This document shows positions 10,822 through 63,503 of a stretch of DNA of 64,000 nucleotides, in pieces. The notes under the pieces are model-generated. The model was not told the DNA's origin. It worked only from the letters and a program-made list of their open reading frames with translations, and did not search any database. Origin of the DNA: Candidatus Berkelbacteria bacterium RIFCSPLOWO2_01_FULL_50_28 (GTDB lineage Bacteria; Patescibacteriota; UBA1384; 2-12-FULL-50-11); NCBI GenBank assembly GCA_001774395.1, contig MEZX01000003.1:9903-73902 (forward strand). Reading direction: 5' to 3'. The translations under genes and the position numbers were made by a program. The stretch's first letter is position 1; the number at the start of each line of letters is the position of its first letter.

Positions 10822-11172
10822 GTCAGCGGCCTGGGAGACCGCATCACCAACAGCTTTACGTTCATCGCTGAGATCGAAGGTCGCTTCAACCGCAACCAAC
10901 GGACGAATCGAAAGGATCGAAACGTTCAGAGCCATCCCCCGAAGGCGATAGCAAGACAAGCACTTGAGCGCTTGCCACCGAGTTTACTCGGCGTCGAGAG
11001 CCAGAGCTCTCACTCGGACGAGTTACAGATCGCTGTTTGGCTTAAACGATCCCCAGGCCTTTTGAGCGCGCTCTAGACTTTCCCAGAGGGGCTAGAGCAT
11101 TGTCAGGTACGCTTAAACCAACCGTATCAACGGTGAAATGGAAATCAAGTCTAAAAAGATTGACCACCCCGT

Positions 11173-12144
11173 TCAGGAAGTGGCCAATTTTGGCGAGATG
11201 GTTTGAGCGCAGAGCTGGCGGTACGCGCAGTATCGATCCATTACTCGCTTCTCAGTGGAGTTGGGTCTTCGACGGTAACGCCGACCACCTTTCCGACGAA
11301 CTGAGGGGTCTTGCAGTGAGGCGAGTAGCTGGCTCATCATCCCGCTGATCTGCACCTGAGTCGCCTTGTCACACAGACCTTTTTCGATCGCGTTGTGAAT
11401 AGCACCGCGAATCTTGCCGAGGTAGCTGCGTGGCAGGATGATGCTCCGATTCTGATTGAGTGTGAATCCAGCGATCTTGACTGGCCCGCGGTTCAGGTCA
11501 AGGATTTGGGTCTTACTTTCATGGATCACCAAACCAGCTTCGCGCATCAGGCCGTAGATGGCCTGGCGTTTCTTCTTGCCGATTCTCGTCATTGACGACA
11601 AGGTGATGTCGTCGAGATAACGGGTGTACGTCAGACCGTACTGCTTGCAGAGCTCTATGAGTTTGCTGTCGAGCAGGACTGCCACGTAGAGATTGTAGAG
11701 ATCGGGCGAGGCTGGTGCTCCAGTGAGCAGGCCGCCTTTGTTGTTAAGACAGTAGCGCTGGAGGAACTGTGTGACTACTTCAGATCCAAATAGATCGCGC
11801 GGCAGAGTTGGATCAAGCTCCAACAAGACCTGGACCAACTTCTCTTCGTCAACTGTTCCGTAAGCATCCTTGATGTCTAACAGCAAAAAGTACCTATTGT
11901 TTCGGTGCGGAAAGATGTTGGTGATTGACGAATGGCCTTTCCTGGCGCCGGTGGCCGCGGAAAGATCGGCTGGTAGCGAACGAAGGTAGCTAATCAGTGC
12001 GCTATGAACCTCTCGCATTTGAGCGTTAGGTGCGGAAATGTGACGACGTTTGGTTCTGCCGCCGAGAGGGTTCACATCCTTCAGAAAGAAGTGACGAAAA
12101 GCTGCTCCCTCGACAGGAGCGGCCAATATTGGTTTGTTTGACAT
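11173..12144 (-). CDS. reverse transcriptase, retron-type (putative)
   Basis: 323 aa. RT motifs: NRYFLLLDIKDAYGTV (motif 2), GLLTGAPASPDLYNLYV (motif 4), TYTRYLDDITLSS (YxDD), VIHESKTQIL (motif 6) and KIAGFTL (VTG-like). SITNIFPH is NAxxH-like. No maturase or endonuclease domain. AGGAG is 6 nt upstream of the ATG. Confidence 0.7.
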   Translation of the reverse strand: MSNKPILAAPVEGAAFRHFFLKDVNPLGGRTKRRHISAPNAQMREVHSALISYLRSLPADLSAATGARKGHSSITNIFPHRNNRYFLLLDIKDAYGTVDEEKLVQVLLELDPTLPRDLFGSEVVTQFLQRYCLNNKGGLLTGAPASPDLYNLYVAVLLDSKLIELCKQYGLTYTRYLDDITLSSMTRIGKKKRQAIYGLMREAGLVIHESKTQILDLNRGPVKIAGFTLNQNRSIILPRSYLGKIRGAIHNAIEKGLCDKATQVQISGMMSQLLASLQDPSVRRKGGRRYRRRPNSTEKRVMDRYCAYRQLCAQTISPKLATS

Positions 12145-12239
12145 CTGTTACTCCTGTTGTGGTTGATGTGAAAGGGCGAAGAATTCCAGCGAAGATGGGG
12201 CAGGGAAAGATTACGACTTACTCTTGGTTGAGTCAAGCA

Positions 12240-12326
12240 AAACTTTTTCAAGATGATATTCCCGGCCGGGTTCGTCTCTCTCGTGAACAAAGAGAGCTGT
12301 ACGAACAGCTAAAAAACTTAAGTTAA
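12240..12326 (+). pseudogene. displaced fragment encoding a DnaJ C-terminal tail (KLFQDDIPGRVRLSREQRELYEQLKNLS*)
   Basis: 16/21 residues are identical to the tail of the intact DnaJ-like gene, in frame to a stop. There is no convincing RBS. Confidence 0.4.
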
Positions 12327-14095: not shown

Positions 14096-15538
14096 TCAGA
14101 CAGTATTGCCAAGCAGGTATTCGATTGCCTGCTTAGCACCGTATGAGTCGTTCGGACCATCCATCAGGAACGGGAGAAAATCCAGATTTCCCGCAGTTAC
14201 GACCGCGGGCTCTCCCTTGTTGCCTAATCTGGCCGTGACCATCAGACCATTACAGAGACATCCCCTGCCGACGGTATCTTCGAGTTTCCCGCCCTTAGCG
14301 GTATACTTCTTCTCCGGTTCGGCGGCGCATCTGTAGCCGATGGAACCGTCTGGCTTCTCGTACAGAGAGACCAGAGCGCACTGATTACAGACGCGATCTC
14401 TCTTCCTGAAGACCTCTGGGTCAGCGATCGTCCCTTCCAGCTCTACAACTTGAAAAGGATATCCTGTTGGAGAGATGTCCATATCAGTACGAACTTTCAA
14501 TGTGCCATTGTACCCCTGCCTCCGAACTTCGCGGCGAATTTCAGGATCCATTCCGGAATCGTCACTGAAAGCAAACATAGAGCCGACTTGGATGCCCATT
14601 GCGCCGACCGACAGTGCCCAGCGGAGTCTTTCCGGTGAGGCGCAAGAACCACCGATATAGAACCGCACACCGAGTGCGACGAGCTTGGCATAGTCGACAA
14701 CATCCTTTTCGCCGTAGACAAGAATTTGTTCGCCGTCAGCGTTTATCGCGGGGGTTCTCGGCGGAGCGTTATGCCCGCCAGCCGTTGGCCCTTCAACGAC
14801 AAGAGCGGCGATATCTCCTTCGATCTTCGTCGCAAAGAGAATGGCAAGGGCGGTCGAGGCAACGATGGGAATGAATCCCGGCTTCTTCATCGGCGGCAAT
14901 TCGCTTCCGAAGAACTTTTTGGGATCAAAACTCATCGCATACTTCTTGGTCTTTCCGTCGATACCGGCGTAATCTACGTCGTAGTGGACTACTCTTCCTT
15001 CGGCGATCGCGTCGATCACGTCAGGGATTTGTCGCGGTATGCCAGCACCCACGGTTACGAAGTCCACACCAGCCATCATCGCACCAAGGATACCGCACAT
15101 CAGTGACATGGAAATTTTCGCCATGTAGTTGATGCTGACCGGATTACTGTGTCCCTCTTTCGCTAAGTAGACAAAGGCGTAGTTAGCGCAAATTGTCAGA
15201 GCGATCAAGCGAGCCGGGGGTTTGACAGTAAAAACTGGTTTACCCTTGTACTTTGCTCCAGCCGGAATCCCGCCTTCGACGAAATACTCGTCAAGCACCC
15301 CTTTGGCCATATTCTGGAACGGAAAAGTTGCCAAAGCGCGTCGAAGGTGTCCACCTAGATCGCCTTCTTGCAAAAGCCGCGCTAGCAGAATATCTGCACC
15401 GACACCCGACACGGTACCAAGTTGGCCAAGCATCGAGACGATTCGTGCTAGCGGCCAGATCGAGATATTGAATCCCATCCCTCCCTGGATAACCCGCGGG
15501 AGGCAGTGGACTTCTGTCGAACTGTTAAGTTTCTTCAA
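14096..15538 (-). CDS. nitronate monooxygenase / FabK-like enoyl-ACP reductase II family (NMO, 2-nitropropane dioxygenase-like)
   Basis: IQGGMG and VVEGPTAGGH motifs. 480 aa. Visibly GC-rich. Confidence 0.65.
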   Translation of the reverse strand: MKKLNSSTEVHCLPRVIQGGMGFNISIWPLARIVSMLGQLGTVSGVGADILLARLLQEGDLGGHLRRALATFPFQNMAKGVLDEYFVEGGIPAGAKYKGKPVFTVKPPARLIALTICANYAFVYLAKEGHSNPVSINYMAKISMSLMCGILGAMMAGVDFVTVGAGIPRQIPDVIDAIAEGRVVHYDVDYAGIDGKTKKYAMSFDPKKFFGSELPPMKKPGFIPIVASTALAILFATKIEGDIAALVVEGPTAGGHNAPPRTPAINADGEQILVYGEKDVVDYAKLVALGVRFYIGGSCASPERLRWALSVGAMGIQVGSMFAFSDDSGMDPEIRREVRRQGYNGTLKVRTDMDISPTGYPFQVVELEGTIADPEVFRKRDRVCNQCALVSLYEKPDGSIGYRCAAEPEKKYTAKGGKLEDTVGRGCLCNGLMVTARLGNKGEPAVVTAGNLDFLPFLMDGPNDSYGAKQAIEYLLGNTV

Positions 15539-15637
15539 CGCATCACCTCCTTTAGGGTATGCGGGATTATTTTAACTGCTGAGGCTGGCAAAAGATATGG
15601 ATTAGAGATTATGCTCTTGCGCTCGCCAATCATCAAT

Positions 15638-15815
15638 AACCGAAAACTGGCGACTGCCACAGCGATTTCAAAGCTTGGCGAGAAATCGGAGCGTAGCGAG
15701 ATCCTTCCGGTGGCGAGGAGCCGGTTTTCACCTCTCCCCGAAGGGAAGCGTGGCCAGGTATGGGGTGTGGGGAGGTAGGGGCGGCCTTCGCAACTACGAG
15801 CCCCTCCTCCCCACA
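15638..15815 (+). ncRNA. structured RNA element, copy A (candidate cis-regulatory leader or ncRNA)
   Basis: Homologous to the minus strand of 26851-27090, with compensatory changes in stems (cgatttc/gaaatcg vs cggctttcg/cgaaagccg; tgtggggagg/cctccccaca vs tgtgggggcc/ggcccccaca). Confidence 0.45.
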
Positions 15816-15919
15816 AAAAAGCTGCGGTGCAGTTGCAAACTCACACCGCTGAAAGCGATAGGAACCATTTGACACTCAACCCAGTTGCTTGGATACTAAT
15901 TTGTAGGAGGAACAAGAGA

Positions 15920-18206: not shown

Positions 18207-18278
18207 AGGCTCGTAGCTCATTGGTAGAGCGTCTCCCTTTTAAGGAGAGCGTAGCGGGTTCGATTCCCGCCGGGCCTA
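18207..18278 (+). tRNA. tRNA-Lys (anticodon TTT)
   Basis: Acceptor aggctcg/cgggcct, anticodon loop cttttaa, T-arm gcgggttcgattcccgc. Confidence 0.8.
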
Positions 18279-18327
18279 CAACAGAACGAATATCGTTGGA
18301 AGCCCAAGGGAAATGACTGAAAGGAGT

Positions 18328-18412
18328 ATTCCCGCCGGGCCTACAGCAGAATGAAATAACTCTTGGAGGACGGGTGGGAACTGAACGAAGTGAAGATTCC
18401 CGCCGGGCCTAC
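18328..18412 (+). repeat. two tandem degenerate repeats of the tRNA-Lys 3' end (attcccgccgggcctac) with about 67-nt periodicity
   Basis: A 17-nt exact match to the tRNA 3' end occurs at 18328-18345 and 18396-18412. The intervening spacers are also related. Confidence 0.7.
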
Positions 18413-24852: not shown

Positions 24853-24988
24853 CCATGGGTAATTATCGAATATTCTAATTATCAAATAACCAAAAAATGA
24901 CGAAACCACTAAATCATCAACTTTTGGAGATTAGTACATTTGGAAATTTTTCGATGATTTGGTTATTCGAAAATTTGGTTATTCTGTA

Positions 24989-26506
24989 ATGGCTTTGGCC
25001 AAAATTCGCAGTGCGGTGGTCAGCGGAATTAGTGCTACCGCAGTCGAAGTAGAGGTTGATGTTGCATCCGGTCTGCCGGGGTTTATTATTGTTGGTTTAG
25101 CTGATAAGGCAGTAGAAGAGTCGCGCGAGCGAGTGCGTAGCGCTATCAAACACTCCGGCTTTAGCTTTCCGCTGTCACGTATTACCGTCCATTTGGCGCC
25201 TTCGGAGAAGAAAAAAAGCGGTGTTCATTTTGATCTGCCCATTGCCTTGGCAATTCTTGTGGCCGACGGCCAGCTGAAGACTAAAACCCTTCCTACCAAC
25301 GCCTTGTTCCTTGGGGGTCTGTCGCTCGACGGCCGAACTCAGGCAATCAACGGCACGCTCGTGCTGGTGGAGTGGGCACGGAACAACGGGTTTGATCGAG
25401 TGGTACTGCCAAGTGAGAATTACGAAGAGTCGTTACTTGTTGAGGGCATCGACCTAGTCCCAGTTTCTTCCTTAAACGAGGTAGCCGAGCTGATATTGCA
25501 CGACACCCTACCGCCCAAACCCACTCCGTCTCTGCGACATGCCGAAGAAGATCATTCAACCGACTGGTTGCAAATCCAGGGACAAGAAAAAGCCAAGCGG
25601 GCTGCGGTAATCTCGGCTGCCGGCGGTCACAATCTGCTAATGGAAGGGCCGCCCGGGGCCGGCAAGACGCTGATTGCCAGAGGTATTAGGGCGCTACTAC
25701 CCGCTCTAAATCGGGATGAGAAAATTGAAGTTGTGAAAGTTCACAGCGTTGCCGGCGAGCTTGACCGAAGTGCGCCGGTTGATTCGATCGGTCGGCCGTT
25801 TCGCTCGCCGCATCACACCGCGAGCCATATCTCGATTGTTGGCGGCGGCACACATCCGCGGCCGGGTGAGATATCGCTGGCTCATCACGGAGTCCTGTTT
25901 CTGGATGAGCTACCAGAGTTTAATCGCTTGGTGACGGAATCGTTGCGTCAGCCGTTGGAGGACGCCGAAATTAATGTGGCTCGGGTTAACGAGTCGGTTC
26001 GTTATCCGGCCAATTTTATGCTGGTAGCGACGATGAACCCCTGTCCGTGCGGCTGGTTTGGGTCGGCTACTCACGAATGCATCTGTAGCGCTCACGCGAT
26101 TAGTCAGTATCGCAAGAAAATTTCTGGCCCGATTATGGACCGCATTGATATTTACCTAAACGTGCCGGCTCTGCCGATCGCAAAACTCCAGAATCCCGAG
26201 TCTCATTCGAAGGAGCTCCAGACCTTGCGTCAGCTGATCGCCCAAGCCCAAGATTTGGCTCGCCAACGTAACGGCAAAGTACTTAACGGTCGGATTTCTC
26301 CGGCTAGTATTTCCAAAATCTGCCAGACCGATCCGGCAGCGGCGAAACTCATCGAACAAGCAGGGGATAAATTCGGTCTCACCGGTCGCGGCTATCATAA
26401 ATTACTGCGAGTCGCTCGAACAATTGCCGATTTGAACCACCACGAGAATATCGGAGTTTCGGAAGCCGCCGAGGCGCTGCAGTATCGCTTCAACCGAGCC
26501 AGCTAG
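24989..26506 (+). CDS. comM: YifB/ComM family Mg-chelatase-like AAA ATPase
   Basis: N-terminal Lon-like domain, Walker A GPPGAGKT, and the C-terminal ChlI domain. Confidence 0.8.
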   Translation: MALAKIRSAVVSGISATAVEVEVDVASGLPGFIIVGLADKAVEESRERVRSAIKHSGFSFPLSRITVHLAPSEKKKSGVHFDLPIALAILVADGQLKTKTLPTNALFLGGLSLDGRTQAINGTLVLVEWARNNGFDRVVLPSENYEESLLVEGIDLVPVSSLNEVAELILHDTLPPKPTPSLRHAEEDHSTDWLQIQGQEKAKRAAVISAAGGHNLLMEGPPGAGKTLIARGIRALLPALNRDEKIEVVKVHSVAGELDRSAPVDSIGRPFRSPHHTASHISIVGGGTHPRPGEISLAHHGVLFLDELPEFNRLVTESLRQPLEDAEINVARVNESVRYPANFMLVATMNPCPCGWFGSATHECICSAHAISQYRKKISGPIMDRIDIYLNVPALPIAKLQNPESHSKELQTLRQLIAQAQDLARQRNGKVLNGRISPASISKICQTDPAAAKLIEQAGDKFGLTGRGYHKLLRVARTIADLNHHENIGVSEAAEALQYRFNRAS

Positions 26507-26823
26507 TTGCTAAGACGAAGCGTTTCGTACACCCAGTTACCAAGTTGAGTGTCGTAGGGAGTTGTTCGTTTGGTGATCACTGCTCCGATAAACAGCACGG
26601 CGATTATCGCCACGCAAAACATTGTTCGTTTCAGTCCAGTGACGGCCGGTGTTTTGATCGATACGTCGTCGTGGCTTTCGACAATCGCGGTTTCTGTTTG
26701 AGGCGCTGTAACAATCGCCGCGCTCGGTTCGGCAAAGCTTACCACCGAACCTTGATTGATCTGCTGAAGTTGGATCTTTTTAGCCAACTGCGCTTGGAAT
26801 TTTTTCTTGTTTTTCTTAGACAT
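26503..26823 (-). CDS. small lysine-rich membrane-anchored protein
   Basis: Internal Met MSKKNKKK, with a single C-terminal TM helix. Confidence 0.4.
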   Translation of the reverse strand: MSKKNKKKFQAQLAKKIQLQQINQGSVVSFAEPSAAIVTAPQTETAIVESHDDVSIKTPAVTGLKRTMFCVAIIAVLFIGAVITKRTTPYDTQLGNWVYETLRLSN

Positions 26824-26850
26824 CGAGGATATCTTAGGGTTCTTTTTGTC

Positions 26851-27090
26851 CAAACACAAGGCAATTTTGTGGGGGCCGGGGGCCTAGTTGCCGTTCGACG
26901 CTGCTCACGGTGCCGAGCGAAGTCGAGGCACGAAGCGGCCCCGAGGCCCCCACACCCCCTGCCCCGCACGCTTGCCCCAGGCGGGTGGAGAAAACTGGCT
27001 CCTCGCCACCGGAAGGATCTCGCTATCGCTCCGGCTTTCGCAAAGCGAAAGCCGCTGTGGCAGTCGCCGGTTTTCGGTTGATTTTATAGT
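26851..27090 (-). ncRNA. structured RNA element, copy B (homolog of 15638-15815), sitting as the leader of the minus-strand gene 26823
   Basis: The reverse complement aligns with copy A over about 110 nt at high identity, then with covarying stems. Copy B has a larger loop in the distal hairpin. Confidence 0.45.
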
Positions 27091-27117
27091 TGGTGGAGGG
27101 TAGAATTGTAGGGAACT

Positions 27118-27189
27118 GCGGGAGTAGTTCATCGGTAGAATGTCTCCTTGCCAAGGAGAAGGCAGCGGGTTCAATTCCCGTCTCCCGCT
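27118..27189 (+). tRNA. tRNA-Gly (GCC)
   Basis: Acceptor gcgggag/ctcccgc, anticodon loop ttgccaa. Confidence 0.8.
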
Positions 27190-27248
27190 CAAAATTTCCC
27201 GTTAATTCGTAGAAAAAGGGCTCTACTACAGGTAAAATACAGACGTTC

Positions 27249-27319
27249 GGCCAGGTGCCCGAGTGGTTAGGGAGCGGTCTGCAAAACCGCGTACAGGGGT
27301 TCGATTCCCCTTCTGGCCT
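27249..27319 (+). tRNA. tRNA-Cys (GCA)
   Basis: Acceptor ggccagg/tctggcc, anticodon loop ctgcaaa. Confidence 0.75.
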
Positions 27320-27493
27320 CACTAGCCGCCAAGGCGGCAATCACCGAATAACCAAATAAACTAATAATCAAAATAAATCCTAGTTAGTATCCTGATTTTG
27401 TTATTCGGAAATTCTTTGAAAATTTGATGATTTGGTTATTTTATAATTCCAAATGGTTGACCGATTCATCTTCTTGGTCTACTATTTGTCAGA

Positions 27494-37719: not shown

Positions 37720-38355
37720 TTAGTCCGCGATCTTGAAGGTAGCGACGACGTTTTTGGAATCAGCGTAAACGGCTGTTAGATCGTCAGGAATGGCCTGGGC
37801 TTGGCTCCAGCCCCAGTAGTAGCTAGCGTTGTGGCCAAGTTCAGTTGGTATGTTAGCCTCCTGCTGAGACAGAGTCCATTGGGCTGGCGTATAAACTGAT
37901 ACCGCAAAAGCACTGGCGTACTTAGCGTCGTGGGTTGAATCAGCGTTCACCCAAGTGTCTTCCGTTGAAGTTGTGGGCATCTCAAAGTAACAGGTGACCA
38001 CAGCGTACCCCGGCTGCGGGTCCATATCCGCTTGCAGAATTTGTTTCACTTTGTGACCGGTCCATTTGGCACCAAATGTCAGATCAAAACCGTATGCGGC
38101 TGTATCGCCGCAAGCCACAAGGTTTTCATCAGCTGCGGTAATTGATGTGGTGGCCGGGGTTTTGGTGGTTTCCGGCGGATTCGTATTCGCAGTTTTCTTA
38201 GGCACTATGGAGTCGGATGTTTCGTCGGGCGCGGTGTTCTGCTGGTAAACCAAGTAACCCAAGACTCCTACCAATACTAAAGCAAACACCAATAGGAGCG
38301 TCTTCAAGCTCGTGCTGGCGTGATCGTGATTGGGCAGTTCGTCGTTCAGAAGCAT
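37720..38355 (-). CDS. surface protein paralog 1 (conserved TM anchor HASTSLKTLLLVFALVLVGVLGYLV)
   Basis: The N-terminal 45 aa are nearly identical to those of the next gene. Confidence 0.5.
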   Translation of the reverse strand: MLLNDELPNHDHASTSLKTLLLVFALVLVGVLGYLVYQQNTAPDETSDSIVPKKTANTNPPETTKTPATTSITAADENLVACGDTAAYGFDLTFGAKWTGHKVKQILQADMDPQPGYAVVTCYFEMPTTSTEDTWVNADSTHDAKYASAFAVSVYTPAQWTLSQQEANIPTELGHNASYYWGWSQAQAIPDDLTAVYADSKNVVATFKIAD

Positions 38356-38358
38356 TTT

Positions 38359-38913
38359 TTAGTTAGTAAGTTTGAAGGTAGCTGCAACGGTGTCAATCTT
38401 CAGGTTCACGGCTTTTGTCTCCCAACTCACCGGAAACGCCTGCGCGTGAGAGTATCCAAACACGTAGGTATCATTGGCTGCCAATCTAGTCGGTGTTGGA
38501 CCTTCATCATTCTGGAAAGCATTCCAAATTTTTGTCGGATATGCGCCGACAACCATCACCGTCGTATAACCAGCGATCGTCCTGGTCGTTCCGTCCGAAG
38601 TGCAGTTATCGCTTGCCGCACACGGCACAAAGAACTCGACATTTTTTATTGTCGGTTGGTCAGGATCGCTCCAAGTAGATGTCTTATACCCCGTCCAGGT
38701 ACTATTCAACTTCATGGTGTATCCGTGGGTAGTGTTGGTGTAGGTTAGGACGCTGGCGGTGCTCTGCGTGCTATTATCCACCTCCTCCGGCGCAGTGTTC
38801 TGCTGCCAAACAAGGTAACCTAAGACTCCTACCAGCACTAATGCAAATACCAGCAGCAACGCCTTCAAACTCGTACTAGCGTGTTCGTGATTTTCTATTC
38901 CGTTTAATTCCAT
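38359..38913 (-). CDS. surface protein paralog 2
   Basis: MELNGIENHEHASTSLKALLLVFALVLVGVLGYLVWQQNTAPEE. The C-terminal ATFKLTN tail is shared with paralog 1. Confidence 0.5.
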   Translation of the reverse strand: MELNGIENHEHASTSLKALLLVFALVLVGVLGYLVWQQNTAPEEVDNSTQSTASVLTYTNTTHGYTMKLNSTWTGYKTSTWSDPDQPTIKNVEFFVPCAASDNCTSDGTTRTIAGYTTVMVVGAYPTKIWNAFQNDEGPTPTRLAANDTYVFGYSHAQAFPVSWETKAVNLKIDTVAATFKLTN

Positions 38914-41379: not shown

Positions 41380-41470
41380 TCGCCTCTCGACTCACTTTGT
41401 TCGCTCGAGGTTTTTCGGCAGTCTCTCGTAAGATACGAGCTTACTTCGAGCCTGTCGAGAAGTGCCCCCC

Positions 41471-41513
41471 GCAGGAGTTGCACCTGCGACCATTTCAAGC
41501 TTTTCTTTGGCGG
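41471..41513 (+). repeat. 43-bp direct repeat R1 (gcaggagttgcacctgcgaccatttcaagcttttctttggcgg)
   Basis: Identical 43-mer to 42632-42674. Both resemble the complement of the tRNA-Arg 3' end (ggcgccccc/tggcaggaNNNNgacctgc). Confidence 0.8.
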
Positions 41514-42316: not shown

Positions 42317-42631
42317 GGCTTAATCCTCCATTCGGTTGGATTTGTGATCCCGTCCACTCGACATGAGTAGCGCGTCAGATACCTGAATCAGATGTCCAAT
42401 GTGCTACTCACAGAGTAAACTAAAAAGGATTTCCCACTTTTTCTCCCGCTTTATCAAAGAGCTATCTGTAATTTAAGGGGAAATTCATCGCCTCAAATTA
42501 TGTGTGAGTATAGCGTATGGTGTCTATCCTGTAAAGCCCGACTGACTACGATTTGATCTCTGCTAATAACCAACTAAAAAGCCCTATTTCAGGAAATCCT
42601 TCACTATTAACTCCTTTAACGTGGCGCCCTC

Positions 42632-42674
42632 GGCAGGAGTTGCACCTGCGACCATTTCAAGCTTTTCTTTGGCG
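42632..42674 (+). repeat. 43-bp direct repeat R2
   Basis: Exact copy of R1, preceded by ggcgccctcg, which matches the complement of the tRNA-Arg 3' end. Confidence 0.8.
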
Positions 42675-42677
42675 GCG

Positions 42678-43706: not shown

Positions 43707-44209
43707 GTAATTACTTACTATTATACTTTTACGGCGGTAGGTAGCACGCTACCCACCGCCGCGGTCAGAGGAGAAGCCAGTCGTCCGGATTATCCGAATC
43801 CGATCCGGTCCAGGGCCCAAGCCCCAGAAGCAATACCCCACAGGGTCGATCATAAGACTGTGAGTGACCAGGAGTTGCCTCACGCGTCGTTTGAGTGACT
43901 GGTGCTGGAGTCTGCTTTGTGATCGGTTTCGTATGGAACCGTTCGTACCAACTCCTTCTAAGTTGCGATAGGCTCGTTAAAAGAGCCATTTTCCCCTCCT
44001 TGGGAATCCCGTAGGATGTGAACAATCCTAGTCTTTCAGGTAAAATATGTCAAGCTTCGACTTTGCTCTCGTTCGAGTCTGAGCCTGAGGGCTCATCCCT
44101 CACCCTTCGACTCTGCTCGGGGTGCCCTGAGTGATATTGAATGGGCAGAGTCAAAGACAGCTTGACTCTGAGCCAGTCGAACGAGTCAAGCAAGCGGAGT
44201 TTCCGCTAT

Positions 44210-63317: not shown

Positions 63318-63503
63318 ATTTCTCCTTCTAGTTGTTAAGGGACCAATCCCTCCAACCTTCAACAAGTTCAGGTTGACCCTGAGCCGAGTCGAAGGGTTTA
63401 TCCTGAGCCCTGTCGAAGGGCAATACAACCCTAGAAGTTCACCCCTAAGACGTAGCCTTAAAATAGCGAATATCCGCTCCTTGTCAAACAGTTACCGGTA
63501 ATC

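Follow-up and report, generated by a model that had tools for sequence, protein, structure and literature searches.

A GC-rich, structured two-copy repeat at a tRNA-Gly promoter of Candidatus Berkelbacteria bacterium RIFCSPLOWO2_01_FULL_50_28: a candidate small insertion element

Between a gene for a small lysine-rich membrane protein and a divergently transcribed tRNA-Gly gene, the genome of Candidatus Berkelbacteria bacterium RIFCSPLOWO2_01_FULL_50_28 contains a GC-rich sequence with a pronounced fold, which is one of two related copies in the window (the whole stretch of 64,000 nucleotides that was analyzed). Exact protein look-ups assign the window to this organism (GCA_001776175.1, Rifle aquifer). 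The first-pass annotation placed this sequence at 26840-27117 and regarded it as the leader of the small gene. CPR bacteria have very small genomes packed with genes, in which repeats and mobile DNA are rare, and the locus raises the question of what the element is and whether it belongs to the gene downstream of it.

Reading and aligning both regions delimited a homologous unit narrower than the interval first proposed, as follows (positions refer to the window).

26865..27079 (-), copy B of the repeat unit, defined by its homology to 15638-15820; the right edge is possibly at 27083.
15638..15820 (+), copy A of the repeat unit, defined by its homology to copy B, with a GC content of 0.60.

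The description of copy B as the minus-strand homologue of copy A was borne out by blastn (80% identity over 155 nt, E 2e-29), and a repeat search resolved the similarity into blocks of 27, 59, and 29 nt (96%, 85%, and 76% identity, respectively). The core of the element is present exactly twice, and a 23-mer taken from it had 2 exact occurrences in the window against 0 expected. In the sense orientation, copy B reads 5'-AACCGAAAAC...CCCCCACAAAA-3'. The unit measures approximately 185-215 nt in the two copies, and the GC content of copy B is 0.67, compared with 0.50 for the window. The similarity between the copies stops sharply at both ends, and the two loci are unrelated. Copy B was identical in 11 independent assemblies of the organism and copy A in 8; because each is identical in every independent assembly, neither is an assembly artifact.

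A covariance model covering the 5' domain of the element (R2), applied without filters to the entire window, recovered the two copies at 118 and 114 bits, and the next match reached 16 bits. No third copy was found in the window by this model or in flanks of approximately 20 kb (an extension of 10 kb on each side), approximately 84 kb in total. The top model match outside the window (19 bits, contig L022) lies inside the 3' end of a coding sequence. The element was not found by blastn or the covariance model in the loci of relatives. In exact-pattern scans of GTDB (one genome per species) and of JGI metagenomes, the only matches were chance ones to DNA of high GC content; exact and gapped pattern scans of viral contigs (IMG/VR) gave no copy, and blastn against a phage database gave no match. 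By these searches, both copies are known from one species, and the element appears to have no relatives in the genome, metagenome, viral, and phage collections.

The two copies have the same architecture according to minimum free energy (MFE) folds, inverted repeats, and a table of helices, and both fold below shuffled controls (z-scores of -3.4 and -2.3 for B and A, respectively), in agreement with the initial view that the element is structured and repeated. The main parts of copy B are listed below.

26990..27075 (-), domain 1, from the MFE folds, inverted repeats, and helix table.
26997..27025 (-), the 29-nt core, UAGCGAGAUCCUUCCGGUGGCGAGGAGCC, at 15694-15722 in copy A and identical in both copies.
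26868..26954 (-), the terminal GC-rich hairpin, from folds, inverted repeats, and sequence.

Helix P1 (GAAAACCGGC/GCCAGUUUUC in copy B; GAAAACYGGC/GCCRGUUUUC common to both copies) is followed by a symmetric 2x2 GA/GA internal loop and by helix P2 (CUGCCAC/GUGGC-G-AG). P2 closes a junction that bears the variable helix P3 (a 10-bp hairpin in B) and a P4 region, and that also contains the segment GGAGCG(A)UAGCGAGAUCCUUCC. Located 3' of the junction are a linker rich in C that contains a short hairpin, CCC-N4-GGG, and then the conserved string AAGCGUG; the last part of the element is the long G/C hairpin followed by an A-run. Structured regions are thus present near both ends, the left one being a branched domain. 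No terminal inverted repeats were found, as every inverted repeat corresponds to an internal helix and the termini are not complementary. Candidate target-site repeats are AAAAT for copy B and ATT for copy A, neither of them flush with the ends of homology.

The core is the longest run identical between A and B; a run of 29 was reached in 342 of 100,000 shuffles of the match pattern, and such a core is improbable under a uniform identity of 75%. The terminal hairpin has the base UGUGGGG/CCCCACA in both copies and spans approximately 87 nt in B versus approximately 50 nt in A, with a distal part approximately 35 nt longer in B. The expansion of this hairpin in copy B had been correctly recognized, but its supposed loop of about 60 nt is actually a folded extension of approximately 50 nt with three sub-helices. 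The helices are paired in both copies except for one C-A mismatch in P1 of B, at the single variable pair of that helix, which is U-G in A. Compensatory changes were identified in P3 (A-U in A to G-C plus C-G in B) and in T1 of the terminal hairpin, where the next three pairs above the base change from AGG/CCU in A to GCC/GGC in B. The fold is kept between the copies by compensatory change, and the core is kept in sequence. Predicted fold energies slightly favor the sense strand over the antisense strand (-117.8 versus -114.8 kcal/mol for B; -82.3 versus -79.4 kcal/mol for A), as do a few G-U pairs that are valid on the sense strand only.

Additionally, the G-runs on the sense strand of copy B at 26936-26965 (-), GGGG-CA-GGGGG-UGU-GGGGG-CCUC-GGGG, constitute a canonical four-run G-quadruplex motif, made up of the 5' arm of the terminal hairpin and the linker just upstream of it (to about 26965). 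Copy A has three G4 runs plus GG at 15761-15785 (+). A quadruplex could possibly compete with the terminal hairpin.

The element is spanned by several open reading frames in each copy. A search for protein-level conservation and for further copies, with five translated frames against 1.84 billion representative proteins, gave a single match, which was the same locus in another assembly. Because this sole match is the locus itself and the indels that distinguish the copies put them in different frames downstream of the core, the open reading frames overlapping the element are non-coding artifacts, as the first-pass annotation had read them. A search of Rfam 15 at the gathering threshold returned tRNAs only and no family for the element, and relaxing the cut-off to E<=10 gave only noise for both copies. 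The element contains a ZTP-like motif (CCGCCUGGG, in B only), a T-box-like motif (GGUGG), and an SRP-like motif (CCGGAAGGA, on the antisense strand); these likenesses are superficial and without any Rfam match. A TR/VR pair of a diversity-generating retroelement was also rejected, given that neither copy codes for protein and the mismatches between them show no adenine specificity. No intrinsic terminator was found on the sense strand, where the 3' hairpin is followed by A-runs and not U-runs (ACAAAA in B); a weak candidate terminator is present on the antisense strand at 27061-27080.

The surroundings of copy B comprise the following features.

26503..26823 (-), the small protein gene (106 aa), supported by conserved position and sequence in relatives.
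26831..26859 (-), a promoter-like motif of the small gene, from an alignment of four genomes.
27078..27106 (+), the predicted present promoter of tRNA-Gly (TTGATT, 17 nt, TAGAAT), from a promoter scan and the alignment of relatives.
27118..27190 (+), tRNA-Gly(GCC), divergent from the small gene.
27249..27320 (+), tRNA-Cys(GCA).

The two tRNA genes are on the strand opposite to the element, as originally described. The distance from the element to tRNA-Gly is 34-38 nt, and the 27 nt given earlier is obtained only if a weakly similar flank (CNCCAA) is counted. The 106-aa protein has a lysine-rich N-terminus and one C-terminal hydrophobic helix, and a word-based protein search with it matched only itself. 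Its gene is nevertheless real, being conserved by position and sequence in three relatives. The syntenic contigs of these three related Berkelbacteria (L024, L026, and L028) were reached via homologues of ComM, with identities of 61-66%. In each of them, ComM is followed by an opposite-strand gene of 104-114 aa with the same design and a C-terminal ..ALRLSN, facing tRNA-Gly(GCC).

The spacer between the small gene and tRNA-Gly is 73, 73, and 82 nt in the three relatives, which have no element, and 294 nt in the window, or 79 nt when the unit is subtracted. Because the spacers of the relatives match the window spacer minus the unit, parsimony suggests that copy B was inserted in this lineage after its split from the sampled relatives; the term insertion is used here in the sense of parsimony only, since even the nearest relatives are distant at the level of ComM.

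The promoter-like motif of the small gene consists of a -35 box TTGTGT (26854-26859), 17 nt, and a -10 box TAAGAT (26831-26836), and separates the element from the ATG at 26823. In the alignment of the four upstream regions, a CTTG(T/C)-type -35 is followed 16-17 nt on by a TA-rich -10 hexamer, and the end of the -10 is 7 nt from the ATG here and 6-11 nt in the relatives. This promoter is deduced from conservation and was not flagged by a simple promoter scan. Its position implies that the small-gene mRNA would be leaderless or have a very short leader. Because the conserved promoter stands between the element and the ATG, the element is outside the conserved transcript of the small gene.

In the relatives, the alignment places the -35 of the tRNA-Gly promoter over the same ACACAAG motif, and the insertion of copy B parts this ancestral -35 from the conserved native -10, TAGAAT. 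The -35 now predicted straddles the end of the unit, and the -10 is the native one that is conserved in the relatives. We infer that TTGATT-N17-TAGAAT drives tRNA-Gly.

Among these genomes, the stretch from tRNA-Gly to tRNA-Cys is a hot spot of variable content. It is only 58 nt long in the window and contains repeated tRNA-Gly 3'-end fragments in L028 (11939-12310), an HD-domain gene in L024 (10420-11249), and a gene of 240 aa in L026 (12057-13134). In addition, a 12-mer, ATTTGGTTATTC (<=2 mismatches), clusters in the AT-rich intergenic regions 24884-24984 and 27346-27441 and occurs in either orientation; three of the sites are found upstream of ComM and the other three in the gap from tRNA-Cys to secG. 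In the whole window, 16 matches to it were counted against 5.9 expected, and the clusters may be binding sites of a regulator.

Copy A is located between an NMO-like gene (14096-15538, -) and the promoter of a gene for a membrane protein of 176 aa.

15869..15897 (+), the conserved promoter of the 176-aa gene (TTGACA-N17-GATACT), downstream of copy A.

Orthologues of the 176-aa gene are present in L026 and L024 (76-81% identity), and an orthologous start region is present in L043. All of them have an invariant ATTGACAC -35, a GATACT-like -10, and a ribosome-binding site, and all are without the element. The distance from dnaJ to the orthologue is only 50 nt in L026; in L043, the sequence upstream of the NMO-like gene directly meets TTGACAC, with no counterpart of window positions 15608-15865 (approximately 260 nt), which hold copy A. 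A TTGAT-type -35 facing outward is predicted at or next to the 5' terminus of the unit in both copies. The opposite orientations of A and B, 11 kb apart, raised the possibility of a composite transposon or an inversion, which was rejected because the gene order between them matches that of the relatives.

Copy A borders a block of 5.1 kb that is absent in L026 and contains genes for a reverse transcriptase (RT), a topoisomerase IB, a NUDIX protein, and the NMO-like protein. The RT has 323 aa and is of the retron type (Pfam RVT_1; PADLOC RT_II-A, 2.5e-33; NCBIfam retron St85 below the cut-off). Homologues of the RT were found at 61-87% identity, and those on the three contigs examined (L043, L044, and L045) at 62-87%. 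The RT unit is composed as follows.

10822..12326, the whole unit.
11173..12144 (-), the RT gene.
10822..11172 (-), a structured RNA.
About 12255..12326 (+), a dnaJ-like remnant.

The region of approximately 350 nt located 3' of the RT folds very strongly on the RT strand (z = -6.3 versus -3.35 on the other strand). It is conserved, with several compensatory pairs, next to the RT homologues of L044 (91%) and L043 (77%). A duplicate of approximately 55-75 nt of the 3' end of a dnaJ-like gene flanks the unit, and L043, L044, and L045 also carry this remnant next to the RT. Just upstream of the RT, both the window and L043 have a topoisomerase IB gene. The RT unit may represent a retron-like island of unusual layout, in which the RNA is placed 3' of the RT and which is integrated at the 3' end of dnaJ.

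Other repeats and gene-content features of the region were recorded. At 18207-18412, the 3' end of tRNA-Lys(UUU), ATTCCCGCCGGGCCTAC, is found twice more downstream at spacings of 65-68 nt, and these repeats resemble scars of integration and excision at a tRNA. Repeats unrelated to the element include a 50-nt direct repeat at 96% identity (41464-41513 and 42626-42675), a 110-nt direct repeat at 81% identity (38222-38331 and 38783-38892), and a 36-nt inverted pair (44088-44123 and 63376-63411), one arm of which is just upstream of tRNA-Pro. Approximately 1.3-8.4 kb upstream of the left end of the window (L029, 1605-8777), a complete type I restriction-modification system (HsdM, HsdS, and HsdR) with a DUF4062 gene adjoins genes for a Bro-N protein and a ParE-like toxin. 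The left edge of the window appears to be a neighborhood of defense and mobile genes.

Several explanations of the element were weighed against this background. The first-pass annotation implied a cis-acting structured 5' leader, such as a riboswitch or attenuator, of the small lysine-rich membrane protein gene. The element does match such leaders in size, in having several stems around a junction whose core is conserved, and in preceding the gene on the same strand with no terminator between them; read-through from further upstream could possibly transcribe it with the gene, and in copy A the 3' strand of the core, GUGGCGAGGAG, can pair alternatively with the 3' arm of the terminal hairpin. 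This alternative pairing is not kept in B, however, no expression platform (a terminator or a helix sequestering the ribosome-binding site) was found on the sense strand, and Rfam gave no riboswitch match. The orthologous small genes of the three relatives are without the element, the conserved promoter leaves almost no room for a leader, and copy A is likewise upstream of the promoter of its neighbor. Both copies thus fall outside any conserved leader, and the genes downstream of them are unrelated to each other. This leader interpretation is not supported; it is largely refuted, and we regard it as very unlikely. The retron-type RT, 3.5 kb from copy A, suggests another assignment, in which the element would be the msr-msd RNA of this RT and copy B an orphan second template. 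The element resembles msr-msd RNAs in its length of approximately 200 nt and in joining short hairpins with one long hairpin, but it has no a1/a2 terminal inverted repeats, and three genes and the dnaJ remnant separate copy A from the RT. Moreover, covariance-model and blastn searches found no element beside the RT homologues in L043, L044, and L045, which instead share the different structured RNA immediately 3' of the RT. This assignment is contradicted and scarcely credible. It is also highly improbable that the element is a SINE-like retroposon, that is, a mobile structured RNA copied and inserted by the neighboring RT. The three-way junction with its tandem G-A loop and the G-rich hairpin would then be the structured RNA, the A-rich 3' tails (ACAAAAAA in A, ACAAAA in B) would mark reverse-transcribed copies, and insertion would have taken place next to promoter -35 boxes. 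If true, this would be a bacterial SINE-like retroposon in a CPR genome.

The copies could instead be scars or end sequences of larger integrated islands, at the tRNA-Gly locus for B and at the dnaJ/retron island for A. The position of copy A at the edge of the 5.1-kb block, the different cargo between tRNA-Gly and tRNA-Cys in each relative, and the repeated tRNA 3' ends nearby are in line with this possibility. We nevertheless consider it improbable, since B is on the 5' side of tRNA-Gly and not at its 3' end, neither block has a partner repeat at its other end, the homologous RT islands are without the element, and no integrase was found among the annotated genes of the approximately 84 kb examined. 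The main rival is that A and B are paralogues, both encoding a new structured small RNA that would act in trans or as a protein-binding scaffold, with sense transcription from a putative -10-like box approximately 25 nt upstream (GATTAT in A, TACAAT in B). The conserved junction with its identical 29-nt core, the stems that vary with compensation, the variable length of the distal hairpin, the slightly better sense-strand folds, and the G-U pairs valid on the sense strand only all favor an RNA. On the other hand, the promoter scan gave no sense-strand promoter, the A-runs after the 3' hairpin leave the element without an intrinsic terminator, no homologue was found in the other genomes or metagenomes searched, and the variable P1 pair, U-G in A and a C-A mismatch in B, means that pairing does not decide the strand. 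We judge this explanation possible, though rather unlikely.

The single most likely reading, which we hold with moderate confidence, takes the element for a small repeat that is non-autonomous and either mobile or duplicative. Its foreign GC content, its sharp bounds, its presence at two unrelated promoter-proximal sites, the empty orthologous sites, the hairpins kept by compensatory change, and the outward-facing TTGAT at the 5' terminus fit an insertion element. The weak points of mobility are that there are two copies only, that none was found outside the species, and that terminal inverted repeats and a clear target duplication are missing. No transposase, integrase, or recombinase domains were found among the annotated genes of the approximately 84 kb examined, and no Y1 transposase, RAYT, or TnpB among the genes with Pfam calls in the same region. 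All assemblies are identical, with no presence/absence polymorphism of the element, and mobility is thus undocumented by strains. The pattern of conservation, in which the junction is kept and the stems vary with compensation, is no worse a fit to a functional RNA than to a transposon, and the mobile-element and small-RNA readings are not mutually exclusive.

The element can be compared with known small repeats. Like the Rickettsia palindromic elements, REP/BIME, and Correia-type repeats, it is short (100-250 nt for these families), non-coding, rich in GC or hairpins, and intergenic beside promoters or RNA genes; diverged copies of these repeats also keep their hairpins, and an element end can likewise give a promoter hexamer. 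It differs from them in having two copies, no terminal inverted repeats, no clear target duplication, and no cognate transposase in view, and its 5' domain is a multi-helix junction and not a simple palindrome. The PATEs derived from IS200/IS605 and the REP-RAYT systems share with it the lack of terminal inverted repeats, the different structures near each end, and the conservation of structure over sequence; they also have no target duplication, and no convincing one was identified for the element. In contrast to these, the left flanks of A and B share no target motif of 4-5 nt, the left-end structure is approximately 90 nt long and branched, and no gene for their enzymes was found in the 84 kb examined. 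A MITE would have terminal inverted repeats, which the element does not. Membership in any named family is not demonstrated, and at least one defining feature is absent for each of MITE, riboswitch leader, retron RNA, and Rfam families. The element is best read as an orphan, GC-rich, structure-constrained non-coding insertion or repeat, possibly mobile and possibly expressed as RNA.

By parsimony, the element entered the back-to-back promoter region of tRNA-Gly and the small membrane protein gene after the lineages split, parting the ancestral tRNA-Gly -35 from its -10. The TTGAT at the terminus of the element would supply a -35, and the expression of tRNA-Gly probably survived the insertion because this box is at the correct spacing of 17 nt. 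The hairpins, as single-stranded DNA or RNA, may be what selection or a mobilizing enzyme sees, and copy B would not regulate the downstream gene as its leader.

The riboswitch or leader reading of this locus can be dropped. The wider significance of the element is limited for now because it has two copies in a single species; if it is expressed, it would be a new lineage-specific RNA. As a structure-constrained insertion in the promoter of an essential tRNA, apparently giving a replacement -35, it is a small example of how the compact genomes of CPR bacteria tolerate insertions.
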